Origin: Candidatus Zambryskibacteria bacterium RIFOXYC1_FULL_39_10
GTDB lineage: Bacteria; Patescibacteriota; Minisyncoccia; Phycocordibacterales; WO2-35-19
Length of the DNA: 64,000 nucleotides
NCBI GenBank assembly: GCA_001824275.1
Contig: MHWW01000002.1
Location: 13,266 to 77,265 of the forward strand
Direction of reading: 5' to 3'
How positions within the stretch are numbered: position 1 is the stretch's first letter; every line of letters begins with the position of its first letter. Positions 40,491 to 49,632 of this stretch are shown here, piece by piece. Made by a program: the position numbers and the translations under genes. The notes below the pieces were generated by a model, which had not been told where the DNA came from, made no database searches, and was given only the letters and a program-made list of their open reading frames with translations.

Positions 40491-40886
40491 TTAAGCGTTC
40501 ATTATGCCCCTAAGAAGTTTGTTGGCACCGATGACCATAAATATGTAGCCAGTAGCAGAAAAAACGGTGCTTATGATACTAAACCAAAAACCAACAAACC
40601 ATGGATCAACGACTGTAGATATGGTTCCCAAAACGATAAGAAGCATACCAACTCCAATATAATTAAGGACTGATCCAAACAATCCTCCGCCAAGTTTGCT
40701 TGCTGCTCTGAAGACGAGAAAAGTGGCAATGATGCCAATCACAATAGAAAGCAGGAGCGAGAAGTTGCCGGCAAATACCGAGGCAAACGCAATGCTGTCA
40801 TTTGAAATTTGAGTATCCCATTCTTGAGCCAAGGCGCTGAGCGGTAAAATGATTCCCAAAATACTTATCAAAAAAAACTTTTTCAT
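40491..40886 (-). CDS. Small integral membrane protein.
   Basis: Signal peptide or TM helix MKKFFLISILGIILPLSALA followed by three further TM helices. Start trimmed. Confidence 0.5.
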   Translation of the reverse strand: MKKFFLISILGIILPLSALAQEWDTQISNDSIAFASVFAGNFSLLLSIVIGIIATFLVFRAASKLGGGLFGSVLNYIGVGMLLIVLGTISTVVDPWFVGFWFSIISTVFSATGYIFMVIGANKLLRGIMNA

Positions 40887-40905
40887 ATTTATTATTAAAA
40901 TTAGA

Positions 40906-41172
40906 CTAACGTTGAATTGATGGATATTTTTTAAATATAGAGTTGACCGCGTTTTTGACGATTTCACCAGAAAGAGCGACATACTCGTCAATCAATTTTT
41001 GGAGCACCACTTGTTCCGGACCTTCAATGCCCAAGACCGCGCCATCGTCTGACACTTTGAGTCCTGGCACATTCCTAGCTTTGAGTATGGCAATTTGAGG
41101 GCCCAAAATAACCACCTGCTTCTTGATAATCTCAGTGAGCATTTGTTTGTAGTCTGAATTGTTTGGTTCCAT
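40906..41172 (-). CDS. Hypothetical protein.
   Basis: 88-aa ORF with no recognised domain. Confidence 0.4.
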   Translation of the reverse strand: MEPNNSDYKQMLTEIIKKQVVILGPQIAILKARNVPGLKVSDDGAVLGIEGPEQVVLQKLIDEYVALSGEIVKNAVNSIFKKYPSIQR

Positions 41173-41261
41173 AGTCTAGTTGTTTAATTTAAATAAAATA
41201 CTCCCACTACTTAATATTATACCAAATCAAATATCTCGCACCAGCATTGTGTGGATTGCTA

Positions 41262-41657
41262 TTAACTTTGAAAATCAATTTCAAAAGAGTACATTCCCAT
41301 TCCACAGGATCCTTGTAAAGTCCCCAGTTTAGAATCACCCAATTCAATATCAGTTAATCCAGAAATAGGTAAATTTCTGCTTATATTTAAACTTGGAATA
41401 CGGACCGACGAGGAACAATCGAAAGTACCGTCCGTGTTAAATCTTAACACAGTAGGGACACCCGCCTTGGCGACACTCTTTCTTGGTAAGTATCCTCCTC
41501 TAGCATTTATTTCTACAATCTGAATCCCATTTTCAATTGTTACATTATTTACAGAAGCAACATTTTCACTTGTGGTTTTTGGACTACTTTTGCTAAAAAT
41601 AAAAGCTCCTCCAATGAGGACTAAGGCTATAATTACTGATGTTATTGTTCCTTTCAT
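41262..41657 (-). CDS. Cupredoxin-like domain protein (putative metal-binding), membrane-anchored.
   Basis: N-terminal TM helix then IQIVEINARGGYLPRKSVAKAGVPTVLRFNTDG...CSSS...CGMGMYSFEI, resembling the Cupredoxin_1 family. Confidence 0.5.
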   Translation of the reverse strand: MKGTITSVIIALVLIGGAFIFSKSSPKTTSENVASVNNVTIENGIQIVEINARGGYLPRKSVAKAGVPTVLRFNTDGTFDCSSSVRIPSLNISRNLPISGLTDIELGDSKLGTLQGSCGMGMYSFEIDFQS

Positions 41658-41664
41658 AATCTTA

Positions 41665-42717
41665 TTAAAAATTAAATACTGGCGGAATAACTCCAATAAC
41701 AACCAAAGAATTTATAAGGTTAAACAGAGCAAACATTATAACAATAAGGCCGGCGGATTTAAAGAAAATGCCAGACTTGCTACTGTTTTGAATACTGAAT
41801 GAGCTAAAACTAATCAATGCTAAAACGGGCAAAGTGCCAAGAGCAAAAGCAAACATAGTAAGTCCCCCTTGCACAAAACTACCGGTTGAAAGGGTATAAA
41901 TCTGCATCGATTGAGTAAAGCCACAAGGTAGAAAGAAAGTGGCGATACCCACGAGTAGCGGGGTTAATGTGTGATTAAACTTTGATATACCATGAGCATG
42001 CTTAGCTATAAACTTTGGCATTGATGGTTGCAATTTTTTGGCCCAAGAGAAAGTATCAAGAAGATTAATACCCATCATAAGCATCACTAAACCTATAATT
42101 ATTCCAAGTAGAAACGTGCCGATAGTACCCAATTGAAACGTGGCGCCAAGCACACCAATCACTCCGCCAAGTATAAAGAAAGAAACTATACGACCGATAT
42201 GGAAAAGAATTTGAGGTTTTATTTTACTTGTCCTGAGCGAAGTCGATGGATCTCCCTCTTTAGCAAATGTAGCTGACATAGAAAGCACAAGGCCACCAAC
42301 CACCGCCATACAAGTTGAAAGCGAAGCAACGATACCAATGACAAAAGCGGTGCCGTAAGTCACATTGCCGGCATTTACCAGATTGACTATACCCATTTTT
42401 TGCAGAGTCACAAAGAGCACCGCGAAACCAATCGCAATCGGTATTGCGACTTTGAAATCTCCCCATTTCTTTTCTTTGATCTGTTTTTCAACAGACACGG
42501 TGTAGCCATGAGGTTTAACTGATTTAGTTAACTCGGTAGCTATCTGTTCTAAAGTTTTATCACCAAAGTCTCCCACAATTTCAACTGTATTATTTTTGAG
42601 ACTGGATTTGGCTGAAGTCACATTTGGTAAATCATTAAGCTCACTTTCAGTTAAAAGCACGCAAGCACTGCAATGCATTCCGTGAACATGAAAGGTATAA
42701 GTTTTTTGTACTGGCAT
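41665..42717 (-). CDS. HMA (heavy-metal-associated) domain fused to a polytopic membrane domain carrying paired Cys. Possible metal or thiol transporter.
   Basis: N-terminal GMHCSACV HMA motif, then about eight TM helices with STCMAV and FLPCGFTQS. Confidence 0.55.
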   Translation of the reverse strand: MPVQKTYTFHVHGMHCSACVLLTESELNDLPNVTSAKSSLKNNTVEIVGDFGDKTLEQIATELTKSVKPHGYTVSVEKQIKEKKWGDFKVAIPIAIGFAVLFVTLQKMGIVNLVNAGNVTYGTAFVIGIVASLSTCMAVVGGLVLSMSATFAKEGDPSTSLRTSKIKPQILFHIGRIVSFFILGGVIGVLGATFQLGTIGTFLLGIIIGLVMLMMGINLLDTFSWAKKLQPSMPKFIAKHAHGISKFNHTLTPLLVGIATFFLPCGFTQSMQIYTLSTGSFVQGGLTMFAFALGTLPVLALISFSSFSIQNSSKSGIFFKSAGLIVIMFALFNLINSLVVIGVIPPVFNF

Positions 42718-42777
42718 AGGTTATATATTATATACCCCCCTATGGTATATAACAAGTATAAACTATTTTAGATTAGA

Positions 42778-43758
42778 CTATATTCCACAACCACTTTGTT
42801 GTTTTGGAGTAGGGACCGAAACAGGAGTTGCTTGACCAGCATCTACCCCACACCCATTACTACTTCTGGAGCTACTAGGAACCGTAACCTGTGACGATAT
42901 ACTCCTGAAACCAGAACTACTGGAATACTCAATACCTAGCATTTCTTGAGGATTTACATCTGACCACTCAACCCCTTTTTTCTCTTTCATATAAGTGGCG
43001 ATGGTGATATAGGTATCGGGAAACCAATATGAGTTGACTGCCAAAGCCGCCTTCCACATATCTTGCTCGCTTACGCCTTGAGAAGCCATAAGTTCCAAAA
43101 ATCCAAGCATAGCCATACCATGATTGCAATCCGGGAAGTGGGTTGAATTACCACAACAAGGTCTGTATATTCCACGCGATACTTTATCCACCAAGGATTG
43201 CTGTTCTGGTGTCAGGTTAAAGTATATGTGTCTATTGTAGTGATCCATTGGACTACCCACGGCCACAGTCCAGCCACCAGTTGAAGCGAAATTGACCGCT
43301 CCGCCATATTGAGGATTATTCATTTCTTTTGAATCGACTAAAATTGGGTTTGCATTTGAAAGGCCGAGAGCCCACAATAAGTTTAGAATATACCCCGCAT
43401 TATCTTCATTAATTATTATTTTGCCATTATTGTCTCCAGACAATAATTTTTCATACTCCTCCGTAAACCCACGGCTTGCATAGAGAGCCTTAAATTTTTC
43501 TTCATCAATAGCTCCCGAACTTATAAGTTTTTTGCCTAAATCACCCCAAGTTACCGGAAGCTCTACTCCATTACTAGGCAAAACTTTTTCTTCTAATACT
43601 GATTTTTCTTGAATATTTTCTGGAGCTATGCTTATTTTCCTTGGGCTATCAGAAATTTTTAGTCTTGAGTTATACATCCAAGCACCGGAAAGCAAGATGC
43701 CGGCAATTATTATACTTATCGGAAGTGAAAGTATTTTTTCTAATTTATTTTTTTCCAT
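42778..43758 (-). CDS. Secreted hypothetical protein with a CC-x5-H-x3-DC-x-HG motif (putative metal site).
   Basis: N-terminal TM helix or signal peptide. Contains RPCCGNSTHFPDCNHGMAMLG and a C-terminal Ser-rich tail with Cys. Confidence 0.45.
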   Translation of the reverse strand: MEKNKLEKILSLPISIIIAGILLSGAWMYNSRLKISDSPRKISIAPENIQEKSVLEEKVLPSNGVELPVTWGDLGKKLISSGAIDEEKFKALYASRGFTEEYEKLLSGDNNGKIIINEDNAGYILNLLWALGLSNANPILVDSKEMNNPQYGGAVNFASTGGWTVAVGSPMDHYNRHIYFNLTPEQQSLVDKVSRGIYRPCCGNSTHFPDCNHGMAMLGFLELMASQGVSEQDMWKAALAVNSYWFPDTYITIATYMKEKKGVEWSDVNPQEMLGIEYSSSSGFRSISSQVTVPSSSRSSNGCGVDAGQATPVSVPTPKQQSGCGI

Positions 43759-43764
43759 ATTATT

Positions 43765-44001
43765 TTAGTTACAACAATCTTCTAATTTTTCCATAATTTC
43801 TTTTACATCTTTATTTTTTACATTTGTATTACTTTCCCCAACCTCTCTTAATCTGCGAACAACTTCTTTTATTCCAAGACTTTGAATATCATTAAGAATT
43901 TGCCTGCGTTTTTCACACTTAGGACAATGCGGTATATGCAAGACCTTTGTAAGCCCGGCAATAGCATCTCCAAATTTAATTCGTTTTGTTTCTTCAGACA
44001 T
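43765..44001 (-). CDS. Small Cys-motif protein (CPKC ... C-terminal DCCN).
   Basis: 78-aa ORF. Confidence 0.4.
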   Translation of the reverse strand: MSEETKRIKFGDAIAGLTKVLHIPHCPKCEKRRQILNDIQSLGIKEVVRRLREVGESNTNVKNKDVKEIMEKLEDCCN

Positions 44002-44011
44002 ATTGATTAAA

Positions 44012-44791
44012 TTAGATAAAGAAAATTAATACTCCAATAATCACCATCGCTAAACCAGCCCAAAAATGAACTTTTTTAGTATTTGTGGTTTTCCATTCTT
44101 GCATTTTTTCTACCAAGACTTTATCAGCCGACACCCAGAGCACGACGACAAGCGGTATGCTGAGAATAAGATTGTAAAAGATGAGATAACCAAATCCTTT
44201 AAGATAAGTTACTTGGTCACGAAGCAATCCAATAACCATAAGGTACGGCCCACCCATACAAGGAAACTGACAAATACCGACTAAAGCTCCCAACCCAAAA
44301 GCGGCCACGAAAGAAGTTTTCTCCATTAACCCAGCCATCGTAGTGTACAAAGACTTTGGAAGTTTCAATTTCAAAGGAAATCTTGGAAAGAAATAACCAA
44401 CAAGATTAATAATTCCAAACAAAATCAAAAGTGACGCTCCAAGTTTACCCATGAAATGCGGAGTGTTGAACAAATGCAATACTTTCAATATCCCCAAACC
44501 AATCAAAAAATAAGCAGTGAAAATACCGGCGATATAAGCACCACCAATTTTGATAATTTTACTACGAGTCATCTGTATACCAAACAGAAATGCAATCGTT
44601 ATAAGTAAAATTGAAAAAGAACAAGGGTGAACACTGTCGAGTAAAGACGAGAAAAAAACTAACGGTAAAAGCCAAGTACCTCCTCTACTTAAATTGTAAA
44701 TTAAGCCAGCCGCACCATCGCTATTTTTTAGCACTACAATACCTACAATTACCGCCAAAACCACACCAATAATAATTGCGATTTTTTTCAT
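44012..44791 (-). CDS. ccdA: CcdA/DsbD-family thiol-disulfide transfer membrane protein.
   Basis: Conserved Cys in TM1 (SVHPCSFS) and TM4 (GICQFPCMGGP). Confidence 0.6.
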   Translation of the reverse strand: MKKIAIIIGVVLAVIVGIVVLKNSDGAAGLIYNLSRGGTWLLPLVFFSSLLDSVHPCSFSILLITIAFLFGIQMTRSKIIKIGGAYIAGIFTAYFLIGLGILKVLHLFNTPHFMGKLGASLLILFGIINLVGYFFPRFPLKLKLPKSLYTTMAGLMEKTSFVAAFGLGALVGICQFPCMGGPYLMVIGLLRDQVTYLKGFGYLIFYNLILSIPLVVVLWVSADKVLVEKMQEWKTTNTKKVHFWAGLAMVIIGVLIFFI

Positions 44792-44793
44792 AA

Positions 44794-45300
44794 TTATGGA
44801 GTTACTGTTGCCTTAATTTCCAACTGCAAAGCATTACCGGCAACATCGGTAAGAGTAATAAATCTATCTATAAATCCAACCCCAGCGGGTCCGTGTGCAT
44901 TAGGATCGTAAACTACACGAATAATACGATTTTCACCAGCTTTAATAATTTCATTAGCTGGCGGCACAAAACCCATACCAGGCATTTTAAATGGACCTTT
45001 CATACTGCCGTCTGGACTAATAATAAACGCACTAGTACACATACAGGAAGTTAGAACAGTTTTTAAGTTAATATCTTGAACAGTAGGATTAGTGACAGTA
45101 AATTCTTTGGTGACATTACCGTTTTTCATCGAGATAGTTCCAAAATCATAAAGAGTTTCTGAAGCGATAAGGAGAGCTTCGGAATTATTTTGAGAAGCAC
45201 CCTGAACCGATGCTGATGTCCCACCTTTGATAAAATAGCCCCACACAAATAATCCCATTACCGCCACAATAATTAAGATAATGATTGTTTTTATTTTCAT
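44794..45300 (-). CDS. DUF1573 domain protein (SCxCT motif), membrane-anchored.
   Basis: YDFGTISMKNGNVTKEFTVTNPT...LTSCMCT... matches the DUF1573 pattern. Confidence 0.55.
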   Translation of the reverse strand: MKIKTIIILIIVAVMGLFVWGYFIKGGTSASVQGASQNNSEALLIASETLYDFGTISMKNGNVTKEFTVTNPTVQDINLKTVLTSCMCTSAFIISPDGSMKGPFKMPGMGFVPPANEIIKAGENRIIRVVYDPNAHGPAGVGFIDRFITLTDVAGNALQLEIKATVTP

Positions 45301-45392
45301 AAAGTTTAAATTAGTTAAATAATACAAAAAGCCCTTAATAAGGACTTTTTGCAACACTTCAAAAATTCTAAAAAGAATCTAAGAAGTGCCGC

Positions 45393-45809
45393 TTATACTA
45401 TAGTTGGACTATTTTCGAAAAGAGAAAGCCAATGTATTATTTTTCTAGTACTAGAAAAAACTGGCGAATAATCATAAAAACGATTCTTTATAAATGTAAT
45501 GTATTTAAATATATTTTGACCGGTAAAAAGTATTAGAAATACGCTCGCAAAAATAAAAAGAGAAGCGAGCAATATCGTCAATCCATAGTCTATCGTTACA
45601 TTTATAAATGATTGATAAGAAGAAATATAGTGAATGGCTGAAGCGACTGTATTTTGTACACAATCAGATGTATCTGCAACAGAAAACGGACATTGCCCCA
45701 ACATTTGCCCATCTGAATTATGTATCATGGTGAAAATACCAAAAATTAGCAGTGACATAAATGATACCAGAATAAGTGACGCTATTATTTTTTTGAATAA
45801 AGCTGACAT
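45393..45809 (-). CDS. Hypothetical membrane protein.
   Basis: 138 aa with three hydrophobic helices. Confidence 0.45.
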   Translation of the reverse strand: MSALFKKIIASLILVSFMSLLIFGIFTMIHNSDGQMLGQCPFSVADTSDCVQNTVASAIHYISSYQSFINVTIDYGLTILLASLFIFASVFLILFTGQNIFKYITFIKNRFYDYSPVFSSTRKIIHWLSLFENSPTIV

Positions 45810-45828
45810 ATAAATTACAAATACTTTT

Positions 45829-46056
45829 TTAGCTTAAATCTTTTTTCTTGGACTCAAACTCTTCTTTATCAATTTCACCTTTTGCATATCTCTCTTTTAA
45901 AATTTCAAGAGCACTTGAATTTGATCTAGGACTTGAGTTTTTACCCCCAACTTCACGCACAATCCAAACAATAAAAACAACAAGCAAAACCCAAAAAACA
46001 ACCATCATTATGCCACCTCCAAACCAACCTCCATAATCGTTATAAAATCCGTACAT
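45829..46056 (-). CDS. SHOCT domain membrane protein.
   Basis: TM helix followed by LEILKERYAKGEIDKEEFESKKKDL, the SHOCT motif. Confidence 0.6.
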   Translation of the reverse strand: MYGFYNDYGGWFGGGIMMVVFWVLLVVFIVWIVREVGGKNSSPRSNSSALEILKERYAKGEIDKEEFESKKKDLS

Positions 46057-46089
46057 AATATTTTATATTAGTTAATAATTACATTCATT

Positions 46090-48441
46090 CTACAACTTTT
46101 TAGTTTTTAAGCGTAGGGAATTACCGACCACCGATACCGAAGACATGGCCATAGCAAAACCAGCAAAAACTGGGTTGAGGAGCCAGCCAAATATCGGATA
46201 AAATAGACCGCCAGCCAAAGGTATCCCCACAATATTATAAATAAAAGCCCAAAAAAGATTTTGTTTAATACCGGTCATCGTGATTTTTGAAAGTTTTATG
46301 GCTTTAACCAATTTTGAAATATCACCATGCAAAAGAGTAATCCCGGCTGATTCAATGGCCACGTCCGTTCCTGTCGCCATAGCAATACCCACATCAGCTT
46401 GAGCCAAAGCCGGCGCGTCATTGACCCCATCCCCCGCCATGGCCACGATTTTGCCCTCTGCCTGTAATGCTTTAATTTTATTAAGTTTATCTTCTGGCAT
46501 TACTTCGGCTACTACTTCATCTATGCCAATTTCTTTTGCAATAAAATTGGCTGTGTTTTTATTATCCCCAGTCAGCATCACTACTTTTATATTTAATTTG
46601 TGAAGATTTTTAATAGCTTCTATCGCTTCTGGCTTTACCGCGTCAGCGACCATTATCACCCCCAAAACTTTTTCTTTAGTGGTTAAAACAATAGGAGTTT
46701 TTCCTTCCAATGTTTCTTTTTCAATTGATGTTGTGTTAAAAGACAAATTTAGATCTTTTACAAGTTTTGTATTACCCGCAAAATATTCAATATTTTCAAC
46801 AACACCTCCAACTCCTTTACCTTTTATAGCTTCAAAATTTTGCACTTCAATAAAATTGATATTTTTCCCCGCCTCTTCGGTGGGCAGGCCTTTTGCATAA
46901 GAGACTACGGCGTGAGCGATTGGGTGCTCGGATTTATTTTCCAGTGAAGCCAGCACGGCAATGAGTTCATTATCAGTTTTGTCAGAAAAATTTTGAATAG
47001 AAACTAATTCAGGTTTACCACGAGTAAGTGTACCAGTCTTATCAACCACCACCACATTAACTTTGTGAAGTTTTTCAAGAGTACCAGCATCTTTAATAAG
47101 TATTCCTTCTCGTGCACCTTTACCAACACCAACAATAATAGCGGTGGGCGTGGCTAACCCCAAAGCACACGGACAGGCGATAACCAAAATACCCACGAAT
47201 GATACCAAACCAAACGAAAGTGCCTGCGAAAAACCAAGGTACTGTGTACCTACCAAAAGCCAGAGACCCAAAGAAACAAAAGACAAAACTAAAACAATAG
47301 GCACAAAAACACCAGAAATTTTATCGGCCAACGCCTGAATAGGAGCTTTGCTCCCCTGGGCATCTTCAACCATTTTAATAATTCTAGCCAACATTGTTTC
47401 AGACCCCACTTTGGTAGCTTTAAAGATGAAAGAACCACTGGTGTTTATTGTTCCAGCCACCACAGTGTCCCCTATTTTTTTTGAAACTGGCATTGGCTCA
47501 CCTGAAATCATTGATTCATCTATATGCGACGAACCTTCAATAATAATCCCATCAACAGGAATATTGCTTCCTGGTTTTACTATAATCAAATCTCCGTGGA
47601 CTACATCGTTTATAGATACTTCCAATTCTTTGCCATCACGCAATACCAGAGCTGTTTTAGCTTGCAGATTTAAAAGTTTTTCTATAGCATCTCCGGTTTT
47701 TAATTTTGATCGGGCCTCCAAATATTTACCAAGCGTTATAAAAGCGATAACCACAATAGCCACATCATAATAACTTTGTTCCACGTTTATAAAAGGTTTT
47801 AGACTTTCTTCAAAAGCACTTATGACAAAACTGTATAACACCGCAACCAGTGTCCCCAGACCAATAAGAGTATCCATATTAGCCTTGCCATAACGGAAAA
47901 ATCTATAAAGCCCTAGTAGATACGGTTTACCAACTACAAAAAGGGTGTAAGTAGCCAATATAGGCAAAAGATGATGAAAAAACTCACTCCAAAAAGTTGA
48001 CATCATCGGTATAATTTCAAATTGAGCAAAAATATCCCAACTCATAACAAAAATACTTATGATGACAATTGGGATAAGAGAAAAAAGATTATTGTGCATA
48101 CTTTTTAGTTCAGCCAGTTTTTCATGCTTTGACTGATTAAGTCCTAAATGCTCGGCATGTTCGTCTTTTGACATACCCATTGTTTCTGCTGTTTCTAAAA
48201 TTAAAGAATACCCCAACGGTTCTATTTTTTTAGAAAGATTTTCGGGACTAGTTTGTGTATCATCAAAATCTATTTTTACATTTTCTGTCACATAATTTAC
48301 ATCTACTGATTGTACTCCTACTTCTTTTTTAAAAGTTTTTTCAATAATACCGGCGCAAGAAGCGCAATGCATACCTTTTACCCGCACACTAATTTGAGTA
48401 TTATTTTTTGTTGCAATATTATGTTTATTGGTAGTGTCCAT
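46090..48441 (-). CDS. copA: Copper-translocating P1B-type ATPase.
   Basis: HMA motif GMHCASCAG, TM6 CPC (ACPCALGLATP), DKTGTLT, and GDGVNDAP. Confidence 0.9.
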   Translation of the reverse strand: MDTTNKHNIATKNNTQISVRVKGMHCASCAGIIEKTFKKEVGVQSVDVNYVTENVKIDFDDTQTSPENLSKKIEPLGYSLILETAETMGMSKDEHAEHLGLNQSKHEKLAELKSMHNNLFSLIPIVIISIFVMSWDIFAQFEIIPMMSTFWSEFFHHLLPILATYTLFVVGKPYLLGLYRFFRYGKANMDTLIGLGTLVAVLYSFVISAFEESLKPFINVEQSYYDVAIVVIAFITLGKYLEARSKLKTGDAIEKLLNLQAKTALVLRDGKELEVSINDVVHGDLIIVKPGSNIPVDGIIIEGSSHIDESMISGEPMPVSKKIGDTVVAGTINTSGSFIFKATKVGSETMLARIIKMVEDAQGSKAPIQALADKISGVFVPIVLVLSFVSLGLWLLVGTQYLGFSQALSFGLVSFVGILVIACPCALGLATPTAIIVGVGKGAREGILIKDAGTLEKLHKVNVVVVDKTGTLTRGKPELVSIQNFSDKTDNELIAVLASLENKSEHPIAHAVVSYAKGLPTEEAGKNINFIEVQNFEAIKGKGVGGVVENIEYFAGNTKLVKDLNLSFNTTSIEKETLEGKTPIVLTTKEKVLGVIMVADAVKPEAIEAIKNLHKLNIKVVMLTGDNKNTANFIAKEIGIDEVVAEVMPEDKLNKIKALQAEGKIVAMAGDGVNDAPALAQADVGIAMATGTDVAIESAGITLLHGDISKLVKAIKLSKITMTGIKQNLFWAFIYNIVGIPLAGGLFYPIFGWLLNPVFAGFAMAMSSVSVVGNSLRLKTKKL

Positions 48442-48480
48442 TTTTGTAATAAAATTTAAATTTTGTTTTAGTGTGCGGGT

Positions 48481-48744
48481 TTATTTCCTCTTCAAACGAT
48501 AAACTTCCAATATTTCTTTAGTGGCTTTGCCTCCCTTACCTTCATTTATCTGAGGAATAACACAAGAACTCAAATGATTTTCCATTAGAGCATCTTCAAT
48601 ACTAGATAACGCATTTTTGACTGCAGAAGTTTGAGTAATAATATCAATACAATAAACTCCTTTTTCTACCATGTTTTGTAGACCACGAACTTGCCCTTCA
48701 ATAATATTTAGCCTTCTTAAAATCCTTGATTTTGGTGTAACCAT
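48481..48744 (-). CDS. csoR: CsoR/RcnR family metal-sensing transcriptional repressor.
   Basis: Contains RLNIIEGQVRGLQNMVEKGVYCIDIITQTSAVKNAL...HLSSC, the DUF156 pattern with conserved Cys and His residues. Confidence 0.8.
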   Translation of the reverse strand: MVTPKSRILRRLNIIEGQVRGLQNMVEKGVYCIDIITQTSAVKNALSSIEDALMENHLSSCVIPQINEGKGGKATKEILEVYRLKRK

Positions 48745-48773
48745 AAAATTATACTTAAAGCTATTACCACCCC

Positions 48774-48802
48774 ATACTATACCCCCGGGGGGTATTAGTC
48801 AA
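48774..48802 (-). promoter_or_regulatory. csoR promoter with an embedded operator: -35 TTGACT (48797-48802), 17-nt spacer, -10 TAGTAT (48774-48779). The spacer is occupied by the palindrome ATACCCCC-GGGGGGTAT (48779-48795).
   Basis: The palindrome matches the CsoR-type operator consensus ATACCC...GGGTAT. Confidence 0.6.
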
Positions 48803-48868
48803 GTAAAGGAAGTGGGGATATCCTAACTGTTACTACCTGATTTGTTCCTTAATAATATGTAAACAAAC

Positions 48869-48895
48869 TGCCCGCAACACGTGGTGTTGCGGGCA
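48869..48895 (-). terminator. Terminator hairpin downstream of the Cys-rich gene.
   Basis: CCCGCAACAC-GTG-GTGTTGCGGG followed by a U-rich tract on the minus strand. Confidence 0.55.
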
Positions 48896-48897
48896 AG

Positions 48898-49206
48898 TTA
48901 TTCGGGCAGTCTGTCTCTGATTTCTTGAGACAGTTTTGGAACACAACCAAGGCAGTAGCCAAATTGGGTTTCTGGGTCCATTTCCATCTCATCATGACTT
49001 GTTAACTCACCGCAGTTGTCACAAGTTGAAGCATATTCACAGACTGCCTCTATGCACCTACCATCTATCGTATCGCAAGAGTCGCAGTTCCCCGACGGCT
49101 CACACTCCTCACAGTGGGTTTCGCATGAGCAACATTCTCCTAGCTCAGTCTTCTCAAACCATGATTTTTCTACCATAATCCCCTCTTCAAATACTATACT
49201 ACTCAA
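48898..49206 (-). CDS. Cys-rich small protein (17 Cys in 102 aa). Candidate metallothionein-like metal-binding protein.
   Basis: Contains ECCSCETHCEECEPSGNCDSCDTIDGRCIEAVCEYASTCDNCGEL. It lies immediately upstream of csoR-copA and has higher GC. Confidence 0.5.
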   Translation of the reverse strand: MSSIVFEEGIMVEKSWFEKTELGECCSCETHCEECEPSGNCDSCDTIDGRCIEAVCEYASTCDNCGELTSHDEMEMDPETQFGYCLGCVPKLSQEIRDRLPE

Positions 49207-49296
49207 AATCTCCCAAAAGACAAATGGTTTTATTAAATTATTTTTTAAATTCTTTGCCCTTCGCTATGCTCAGGACACTGAATTTTTATGGTCATT

Positions 49297-49632
49297 TCAT
49301 TTATAAAGTATATTAAGAGCTAGAACAACAACTAAAATCACAATTGCAGGATACTTTATTTTCCTACCAGGAATATCCATCTTCAATATTTTGTAAGCGT
49401 AATAACTTAGGAAACTGGAATCATAATTTATGCTTGGTTCCACCTTTTTTCTTAATAAAAATTCCCATCTCGTTAATGGGCAATACCCCAAAAATATTTC
49501 GGCCAATAAAACCAAAGAAGTAATGATTAAATGGGTGGTCTGAAGAATTGGGTAATACCAACCAATCAAAACAATTATTACCACTAAGATGTGGAGGGAG
49601 AGTATAAAATTAGCCCAAAAAATATATTTCAT
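49297..49632 (-). CDS. Small membrane protein (DUF2784-like; CPLTRWE motif).
   Basis: 111 aa with three TM helices. Confidence 0.45.
   Translation of the reverse strand: MKYIFWANFILSLHILVVIIVLIGWYYPILQTTHLIITSLVLLAEIFLGYCPLTRWEFLLRKKVEPSINYDSSFLSYYAYKILKMDIPGRKIKYPAIVILVVVLALNILYK

Follow-up and report, generated by a model that had tools for sequence, protein, structure and literature searches.

The window analysed here is a stretch of 64,000 nucleotides (nt) from Candidatus Zambryskibacteria bacterium RIFOXYC1_FULL_39_10 (assembly GCA_001824275.1, contig MHWW01000002.1, positions 13,266-77,265, forward strand; GTDB lineage Bacteria; Patescibacteriota; Minisyncoccia; Phycocordibacterales; WO2-35-19), and the subject of this work is a copper-related gene cluster that occupies its positions 48802 to 41262 on the minus strand. 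The list of open reading frames (ORFs), combined with profile searches in Pfam and NCBIfam, gave ten genes, all on the minus strand, in the order csoR, copA, SHOCT, T, D, C, m, X, H and P, where the single letters are names used in this text, and the gene calls are the same as those of the matching JGI metagenome contig. The genes, with product lengths in amino acids (aa) and predicted transmembrane (TM) segments, are the following:

48481..48744, minus strand: csoR, repressor (PF02583, E 5.8e-25; RicR model, E 4e-19)
46090..48441, minus strand: copA, P1B-1 Cu(I)-exporting ATPase (TIGR01511, E 1.5e-179)
45829..46056, minus strand: SHOCT small membrane protein, 75 aa (E 3.7e-11)
45393..45809, minus strand: T, 138-aa membrane protein with two TM segments and no family
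44794..45300, minus strand: D, membrane-anchored protein with a DUF1573 Ig-like domain (PF07610, E 3.9e-9)
44012..44791, minus strand: C, 259-aa polytopic CcdA-like protein (weak DsbD/TsoB/ArsG NCBIfam matches, E ~5e-4)
43765..44001, minus strand: m, 78 aa, with CPKC and a C-terminal DCCN read from the translation, and without a TM segment
42778..43758, minus strand: X, 326 aa, with an N-terminal anchor, member of a large unannotated family
41665..42717, minus strand: H, fusion of HMA and DsbD_2 domains (PF13386, E 2.4e-33; PF00403, E 1.7e-10)
41262..41657, minus strand: P, membrane-anchored cupredoxin (PF13473, Cupredoxin_1; motif CGMGMY)

An earlier note on this DNA had put the number of genes at about 11, and some of its other details had to be amended. 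For D and P it had taken longer ORFs with GTG or TTG starts, and the ATG codons at 45300 and 41657 are likelier; the motif that it had given for X as CC-x5-H-x3-DC-x-HG reads CC-x4-H-x2-DC-N-HG. The short gaps that it described separate most of the genes, but not T from D (92 nt, with two hairpins) nor X from H (60 nt, with a second promoter). The profile searches that it had proposed recovered the DUF1573, cupredoxin and HMA-DsbD_2 families, but no family for T or X and weak matches only for C.

CsoR, its operators and the transcript layout

PF02583 covers 77 of the 87 residues of the window CsoR, and the translation and its alignment place in it C32, H57 and C61 together with Y31 and E77. 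The three putative ligands are spaced by +25 and +4, in agreement with C36/H61/C65, the Cu(I) ligands of the M. tuberculosis protein, and CsoR carries the x-C-H-C Cu(I) fingerprint with its second-shell Tyr and Glu. The regulatory features of the locus, with minimum free energies (MFE) for the hairpins, are listed below:

48868..48896, minus strand: strong intrinsic terminator (13-bp stem, 8 GC pairs; MFE -26.5 kcal/mol, z -6.1)
48774..48802, minus strand: promoter P1, TTGACT-17 nt-TAGTAT (-35 at 48802-48797, -10 at 48779-48774; promoter scan)
48779..48795, no strand assigned: candidate CsoR operator 1, ATACCCCC-G-GGGGGTAT, filling the 17-nt spacer of P1
45326..45392, minus strand: two adjacent hairpins in the T-D gap (MFE -32.8 kcal/mol, z -6.5)
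42727..42755, minus strand: promoter P2, TTGTTA-17 nt-TATAAT, 9 nt upstream of the H start codon
42732..42748, no strand assigned: candidate CsoR operator 2, ATACCATAGGGGGGTAT on the minus strand, inside the P2 spacer in the same register as at P1

Operator 1, ATACCCCCGGGGGGTAT, is a perfect 8+1+8 palindrome that begins 1 nt past the -35 and whose final T is the first base of the -10. When it was searched for with mismatches (0.09 chance matches expected at ≤3 mismatches), one further site was retrieved, namely operator 2 at 42732-42748, preceding H. A CsoR weight matrix built from 23 csoR-upstream boxes of other species, with the window excluded, scored 28.5 for operator 1 and 20.5 for operator 2, the next best value in the 64 kb being 4.5. 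In our comparison set, which consisted of 80 species-representative loci searched by tblastn with the window proteins, CsoR-type boxes occur 27-59 nt upstream of csoR in 25 species; boxes of this type also immediately precede T in L048, L050 and L053, X in L042 and H in L079. The arrangement seen in the window recurs in most of 33 boxes of other species: the -35, resembling TTGAC(A/T) or TTGCAA, is separated by about one base from the 17-nt box, whose last T is shared with a TAnnnT -10. The two proposals made by the earlier note for this region, that the palindrome at 48779-48795 is a CsoR-type operator and that it fills the 17-nt spacer between TTGACT and TAGTAT so that the repressor occludes the polymerase, were both borne out by the comparison. 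The window CsoR thus seems to have a GC-tract inverted-repeat operator at its own promoter, and it is well supported that the palindrome would act as a CsoR operator and that repression would occur through occupancy of the spacer. The layout, repeated at two promoters, is a clean example of an already known mechanism.

As in the Gram-positive CsoR-copA(-copZ) operons for copper efflux (M. tuberculosis cso, B. subtilis copZA, Listeria csoR-copA-copZ), we find a C-H-C repressor, predicted autoregulation, a TACCC...GGGTA-type GC-tract pseudo-palindromic operator and a P1B-1 CopA with an HMA domain. Unlike them, the window cluster has no CopZ, contains eight further genes and an internal hairpin/terminator, and has its operator placed exactly inside a 17-nt spacer, at two promoters.

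The other element expected to shape the transcripts is the pair of hairpins that directly follows the T stop codon, the second of which is terminator-like and precedes a U-rich tract. Equivalent T-D gaps, typically of ~90-96 nt, are strongly structured in at least 15 species (-30 to -36 kcal/mol, z -4 to -8; among them L017, L021, L022, L027, L028, L030, L053, L059, L060, L069, L075, L078, L083 and L086), the stem sequences differ among species, and five of the six basal pairs of hairpin 1 show compensatory changes. An Rfam search of 40800-49400 returned nothing approaching any gathering score. The space between the hairpins and the start codon of D is too short for a promoter, so that transcription of D-C-m-X would depend on read-through or on a start within T. 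We suggest that the element is a conserved internal attenuation site, giving the pump part and the thiol part different levels; it could be a regulated attenuator or a site of processing and stability. No terminator was found past the cupredoxin gene P. With a second CsoR-box promoter (42755-42727) before H, and a conserved hairpin pair that splits T from D, the cluster is not one simple operon, and the single large operon of the earlier note had to be abandoned.

Three side observations concern csoR and its surroundings. In about 40% of the CsoR homologs of the related loci (L010, L012, L013, L020, L028, L036, L039, L042, L045, L047, L050, L061, L062, L066, L071, L072, L080, L081, L086) the last Cys of the C-H-C triad is replaced by His (HLxTH), and many of these are still found behind a TACCC...GGGTA box; such homologs may differ in the metals that they sense. 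The -10 overlapping the box lies, in several species, just 6-10 nt from the csoR ATG (e.g. L010 4546, L041 2926, L051 4296), so that the csoR mRNAs there may have no leader or almost none. Close to the csoR promoter, on its upstream side (48898-49206, minus strand), a 102-aa, very Cys-rich protein is encoded (~17 Cys, in CC, CxC and CxxC runs), which had no Pfam match and was found beside csoR in none of the 80 related loci; the terminator at 48868..48896 closes this gene and isolates the csoR promoter.

The recognised copper proteins and the conserved core

CsoR, CopA, the CupA-type chaperone and the HMA-DsbD_2 protein are of already known kinds. The translation of CopA contains GMHCASC in an N-terminal HMA domain (PF00403, E 9e-16), ACPCALG (CPC), IYNIVG (YN), MAMSS and DKTGT, and the protein has therefore the features of a P1B-1 Cu(I)-ATPase (CPC, YN, MxxSS, DKTGT and the CxxC of HMA), as judged from its translation. 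The SHOCT gene adjoins csoR or copA in 26 of the 80 loci. By phmmer, P matches the pneumococcal Cu(I) chaperone CupA (2mry/4f2e, E 2.3e-7) and, with E 6e-5, the metal-binding domain of pneumococcal CopA (4f2f); it has a TM helix at residues 1-19, and its FDC (distal Cys) and CGMGM (C-x-M-x-M) ligand positions align with those of CupA, so that on the evidence of its cupredoxin domain, TM helix and putative ligands we regard P as a CupA homolog. CupA has been described as confined to a few streptococci (PMC7558416). The likeness to the CupA-CopA pair of Streptococcus pneumoniae lies in this membrane-anchored cupredoxin with its aligned Cys and C-x-M-x-M positions; unlike there, the window CopA has a classical HMA at its N-terminus and not the cupredoxin metal-binding domain of the CupA-type partner, and P is paired with an HMA-DsbD_2 protein under a CsoR-type promoter of their own. 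This protein, H, of the HMA+DsbD_2 type COG2836, consists of a cytoplasmic HMA domain (GMHCSAC) and a DsbD_2/UreH-like polytopic domain with conserved TM Cys in STCMAVVGG and FFLPCGFTQ; proteins of this type were earlier inferred to be members of the CsoR regulon in gut Firmicutes (PMC4938975).

The order T-D-C-X, on the same strand, is kept across the 80 species loci. Where at least 3 kb upstream of X are available (65 loci), 45 contain T, 48 D and 45 C; of the 34 loci in which at least 6 kb flank X on both sides, 33 have copA or csoR no more than 10 kb away, 32 have copA, and 14 (~40%) have the H-P pair. The same neighbourhood picture was obtained in two independent look-ups using gene calls. 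The co-occurrence of the Cys-motif genes with copA/csoR in other genomes, which the earlier note had proposed as a check, is thus confirmed, but the quartet on which it focused (DUF1573, CcdA, cupredoxin and HMA protein) was mis-drawn: the conserved core is made up of T, the DUF1573 protein, the CcdA-like protein and the 326-aa X. Similarly, the cluster is of unusual size, as had been claimed, when compared to model bacteria, yet this size is the norm for the clade. X is 55-83% identical among the 80 species loci, versus a median of ~45% for CopA, and it must therefore be under strong constraint.

As for the individual core proteins, Pfam and NCBIfam searches with T gave no match; in 49 sequences T has two invariant Cys in an outside loop and an invariant C-terminal WLxLxENSP. 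D shows the Ig-like domain and the S-C-x-C-T motif of DUF1573 (PF07610): its predicted model is an Ig-like beta-sandwich (predicted local distance difference test, pLDDT, 86) and in the family alignment TSCMCT is invariant, as are M106 and H136. Selenoprotein versions of DUF1573, in which UGC stands at the CxC position, are also known (PMC9312934), and they point to a redox or metal-binding role of the motif. C has no Pfam match even at E 10, and the DsbD_TM model PF02683 does not recognise it; compared by hhalign with the PF02683-positive CcdA proteins of variant loci, however, the C family reaches a probability of 93.7% (E 1.8e-7, 190 columns), with both Cys motifs, HPCSF and CQFPCMGGP, conserved and lined up with CcdA. 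From this polytopic two-Cys core we classify C as a divergent member of the CcdA/DsbD superfamily. Crude positive-inside counts predict an N-in/C-out orientation for D, T and the thioredoxin-fold protein that substitutes for D in variant loci, and mostly the same for X. In most relatives the slot of m, between C and X, holds a 164-aa protein, Y164, which also ends in CC. We observed Y164 at L001 9475-9966 and in the same slot of 28 other loci; it is well conserved and cytoplasmic, without TM segment or Pfam family, and has an invariant EGETWC..KHLL and the C-terminal CC.

The components of the core are exchanged between genomes. D and C are swapped in 12 of the 80 loci for a canonical CcdA (PF02683) and a membrane-anchored Redoxin/AhpC-TSA protein, which contains C-Y-P-A-C (C-x3-C) and a downstream PGHTY, is Sco-like and gives a weak SCO1 match; the CcdA and Redoxin pair occurs again in L096, downstream of X, where CopZ and CopA are neighbours. 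In L091, which holds a distant relative of X, D+C give way to a ferric-reductase-like TM protein together with an NAD-binding flavoprotein, and the neighbouring genes encode an ATPase of the CopB type, with a CPH motif and a His-rich N-terminus, and a CuA-like cupredoxin. Distant X relatives of different architecture are likewise those of L096, L094 and L095; the neighbours in L094 are DUF411, the CopG copper-resistance family, DUF302 and a BlaI/CopY-family repressor, and those in L095 are SHOCT, COX2-type cupredoxins, a Fer4_5 (CcoG-like) protein, two more DUF1573 proteins and a PCYCGC protein. Separate rhodanese genes adjoin the X relatives in both L091 and L095. A much larger metal island was also seen after X in a Parcubacteria lineage (L001 11600-18900), with DUF3105, csoR, SHOCT, DUF302/YHS, HMBD, DUF305, an ICMT-like methyltransferase, YHS, a cation-efflux (CDF) protein and an HMBD-type P-type ATPase.

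Protein X and its family

The family of X counts 5,986 database matches; relatives of X occur in at least 583 species-representative genomes and form 709 clusters at 50% identity. The best 120 of the 5,986 matches are all unnamed or 'hypothetical' and without a Pfam domain, and those labelled with an organism are Patescibacteria; Pfam and NCBIfam scans of X and 45 family members returned no match, PF03918 included, and X alone or as a family profile gave only noise versus the PDB. In the family alignment H173, H177, C201, C202, D210-C211-N212-H213 and C303 are invariant and C324 nearly so; the two last-named Cys belong to a C-terminal tail (GCG...GCGI) that is rich in Gly and disordered. The predicted model of X has a pLDDT of 79.6.

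One X-family gene, in L095, adjoins a gene in which CcmH (RCPCCENN...ECTC) and DUF1573 are joined in one protein (L095 1987-2817; CcmH PF03918, E 3.3e-9; DUF1573, E 1.5e-12). The segment RCPCCENNIGECTC...GAS of this CcmH variant aligns without gaps to RPCCGNSTHFPDCNHG...GVS of X (E 1.1e-3). X does not contain the LRCxxC motif of CcmH, having RPCC...DC instead, and homology to PF03918 was not found; we treat its core as putatively CcmH-like in fold, and perhaps in origin. Filing X as CcmH was considered and rejected, because hhalign and Smith-Waterman comparisons revealed no similarity to classical CcmH. A by-eye likeness to the PCYCGC protein of L095 was also considered, and assignment to that family was rejected at an hhalign E of 0.61.

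In ~15-20 of 150 X-family representatives X follows, as part of the same protein, a 4-TM domain in which CxxC or CC, mostly CPxC, is embedded in the membrane, as in P0148, P0153, P0165, P0182, P0229, P0238 and L091 8001-9545. One such domain weakly resembles MerT (NCBIfam E 0.004) and, judged by eye, shares the LGxSG...LE pattern. Two further fusions, P0144 and P0155, carry a rhodanese domain with its active site (Pfam scan or by eye). Hidden Markov models of T, Y164, m, D and C gave no significant match to the N-terminal extensions of the fused X relatives.

A candidate thiol relay and its alternatives

Gene identities, operator conservation, synteny and the replacement of components between genomes can be read from the sequences compared. 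On these grounds we propose, with a probability of roughly 0.6, that the locus is a CsoR-controlled copper-defence island with an extracytoplasmic thiol relay feeding X, in a Paceibacteria-type Patescibacterium. According to this proposal, in the absence of copper CsoR would sit on its 17-bp box, fill the spacer of each promoter and block RNA polymerase; binding of Cu(I) at C32/H57/C61 would release it from the DNA. The P1 transcript would then provide CsoR, the CopA pump, the SHOCT protein and T, and read-through past the internal hairpin/terminator would add D, C, m and X, while the P2 transcript would supply the HMA-fused DsbD_2 membrane protein H and the CupA-type chaperone P. C would convey reducing equivalents across the membrane, probably from cytoplasmic thioredoxin outward, as its replacement in the loci with CcdA and Redoxin suggests; the surface-anchored D would accept them through its CxC and hand them on to X, a membrane-anchored Cys/His-rich acceptor with a CcmH-like helical core and a flexible Cys tail. 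Reduced X would bind or process copper at the cell surface, and might thereby either trap the Cu(I) that has been exported or maintain surface thiols and copper sites in the reduced state during copper stress. In this scheme we infer the direction of electron flow, the binding of copper by X and D, and co-transcription. That three unrelated routes of reducing power outward are found beside X is what would be expected if X is the acceptor that ends a reductive relay; CcmH, Sco1 and ScsC are served by reductive relays in known systems (PMC7558416, PMC10907172, PMC3322552, PMC8900818).

By analogy, the module T-D-C-(m/Y)-X would work most like Scs, or like the CcdA/TlpA-Sco and CcdA-CcmG-CcmH relays, and it shares no component families with Scs. 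Scs (ScsB-ScsC/ScsD of Salmonella, Proteus and Caulobacter) is a copper-induced envelope thiol system, and at least one of its Cys proteins, Caulobacter ScsC, has a very high affinity for Cu(I) (PMC10907172, PMC8900818, PMC3322552). The likeness is only functional, in that a DsbD-type transporter feeds extracytoplasmic Cys proteins: the window proteins are unrelated in sequence to ScsB, ScsC and ScsD, they would be CsoR-regulated, and the role of acceptor would fall to D, with its Ig-like DUF1573 domain and CxC, and to the unclassified X instead of to thioredoxin folds, none of which was detected in the window cluster by the Pfam and NCBIfam searches. Moreover, a Patescibacteria-type organism is expected to have a single membrane, unlike the Scs hosts. 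With System I cytochrome c maturation (DsbD/CcdA, CcmG, CcmH) the module shares the succession of a CcdA-type transporter, a relay protein and a small helical Cys protein, as well as the weak CcmH fold match of X and the CcmH::DUF1573 fusion beside an X gene; by contrast, X has PCC...DC and not LRCxxC, its homology to classical CcmH is undetectable, and the cluster contains no ccm or heme-handling genes and stands in a copper and not a heme context. The TlpA-Sco1-PCuAC pathway is alike in having a membrane-anchored thiol reductase and Cys/His copper chaperones outside the membrane, and the D substitute of the variant loci has the Sco-like C-x3-C...H; it differs in that the window has no Sco1 or PCuAC gene, the cluster no cytochrome oxidase gene, and the regulator is one of copper excess.

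Several observations weigh against a copper-controlled thiol relay. The roles given to T, D, C, m and X derive from sequence and from comparison between genomes. CcmH, the top fold match of the X model and also the first in Foldseek, is weak (E 0.85), and comparison of the X family with E. coli and P. aeruginosa CcmH, by hhalign and by Smith-Waterman against shuffles, remained at noise level. Crude positive-inside counts favour an outside location for the P domain, whereas pneumococcal CupA is described as acting at the cytoplasmic face of the membrane (PMC7558416). In the matrix scan no CsoR box was recognisable for most stand-alone T-D-C-X modules, so that copper control may not be universal, and the conserved terminator-like hairpin between T and D means that copper control of D to X is not assured. 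Finally, the fusions of X to MerT-like TM domains and the Sco-like C-x3-C...H of the substitute would fit a relay of metal equally well.

Such a relay of metal would resemble the Mer soft-metal systems: X would capture Cu(I), or Ag/Hg, outside the cell and pass it to membrane Cys pairs (C, H, MerT-like domains), then to m, Y164 or HMA and finally to CopA or CsoR, so that metal, and not electrons, would cross on thiols. The 4-TM fusions keep this account alive, and the CC ends of the cytoplasmic m and Y164, the invariant Met and His of D beyond its CxC, and the pairing of H, an HMA on a DsbD_2/UreH-like permease, with a CupA-type Cu(I) binder all agree with it. We consider it unlikely, however, because taking up a toxic metal under the control of a copper-induced promoter would bring no obvious benefit unless the cytoplasm had an enzyme to detoxify it, and no such enzyme is present, because D and C are replaced by electron carriers (canonical CcdA with a thioredoxin fold; the ferric-reductase/NAD module), and because the MerT similarity is marginal. 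A second account, modelled on CcdA/TlpA, Sco1 and PCuAC, which feed CuA, would see in the module an assembly line for extracytoplasmic copper centres, in which the ligand Cys of a cupredoxin (P here, COX2-like elsewhere) is reduced and copper inserted, for biogenesis and not for defence. It is kept alive by the cupredoxin genes that follow X in the window and in ~40% of the loci and by the CuA-type cupredoxins next to distant X relatives; the Sco-like motif with its His and the weak SCO1 match of the D substitute, the role of CcmH as a reductase of a maturation pathway, and the TlpA-Sco1-PCuAC route as an established precedent (PMC7558416) point in the same direction. Yet a cupredoxin is adjacent in 14 of the 34 fully flanked loci compared with 32 for copA, X is far more widespread, a repressor released by copper excess suits detoxification better, and P matches the chaperone CupA over electron-transfer cupredoxins, which together make biogenesis an improbable purpose.

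The module might also belong to general disulfide reduction or isomerisation in the envelope, a DsbD/DsbC-like or Ccm-like housekeeping function that lies beside the cop genes by position only and has no copper role. Its CcdA-type and thioredoxin-type components, the CcmH-like fold of X, the many stand-alone modules lacking a CsoR box and the conserved terminator between T and D could all be explained in this way. Nevertheless, in loci of very different architecture the module is linked to two subtypes of copper ATPase and to several other copper genes, and four species have a CsoR box immediately before T or X; this renders a purely positional association quite improbable, and the copper-induced Scs thiol systems show that both roles are compatible (PMC10907172). 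Handling of sulfane sulfur or persulfide, in which X would take part in rhodanese-type chemistry, for instance in copper sulfide precipitation or sulfur traffic, appears very improbable: the two rhodanese fusions keep it alive, more weakly than the 4-TM fusions do for the metal relay, and the rhodanese genes beside X relatives in L091 and L095 and the weak match of C to the rhodanese/DsbD fusion TsoB would fit, but neither the window nor any of the 80 close loci contains a rhodanese, and the fusions are rare.

With regard to the thiol relay feeding X, the suggestion of the earlier note that the cluster may encode an undescribed thiol-redox and copper module coupled to efflux has survived every test run on these sequences. 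Full-text literature on DUF1573 and copper, Patescibacteria and CsoR, Parcubacteria and CcdA, and CPR and CopA yielded no description of the cluster; a groundwater study notes merely that Patescibacteria carry copA (PMC8672522). More tentatively, and at slightly less than even odds, X could found a new class of membrane-anchored extracytoplasmic Cys/His copper proteins, possibly CcmH-derived, fed by at least three interchangeable electron systems (DUF1573 with a CcdA-like protein; canonical CcdA with a Sco-like thioredoxin fold; a ferric-reductase-like TM protein with a flavoprotein), which together with T would form an undescribed pathway common to hundreds of Paceibacteria species. The paired operator-in-spacer promoters are a candidate for a clean and portable copper-responsive switch. 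If the proposal is true, a copper-linked envelope thiol relay would be added for a lineage expected to have a single membrane, DUF1573 would gain a role as a CxC relay or metal-binding domain, and CupA-type chaperones would extend well beyond streptococci. Patescibacteria have tiny genomes, yet hundreds of species retain the module; most of their conserved genes of unknown function are without any context, and the module would rank among the few conserved 'dark' gene sets of these organisms with a testable functional one.

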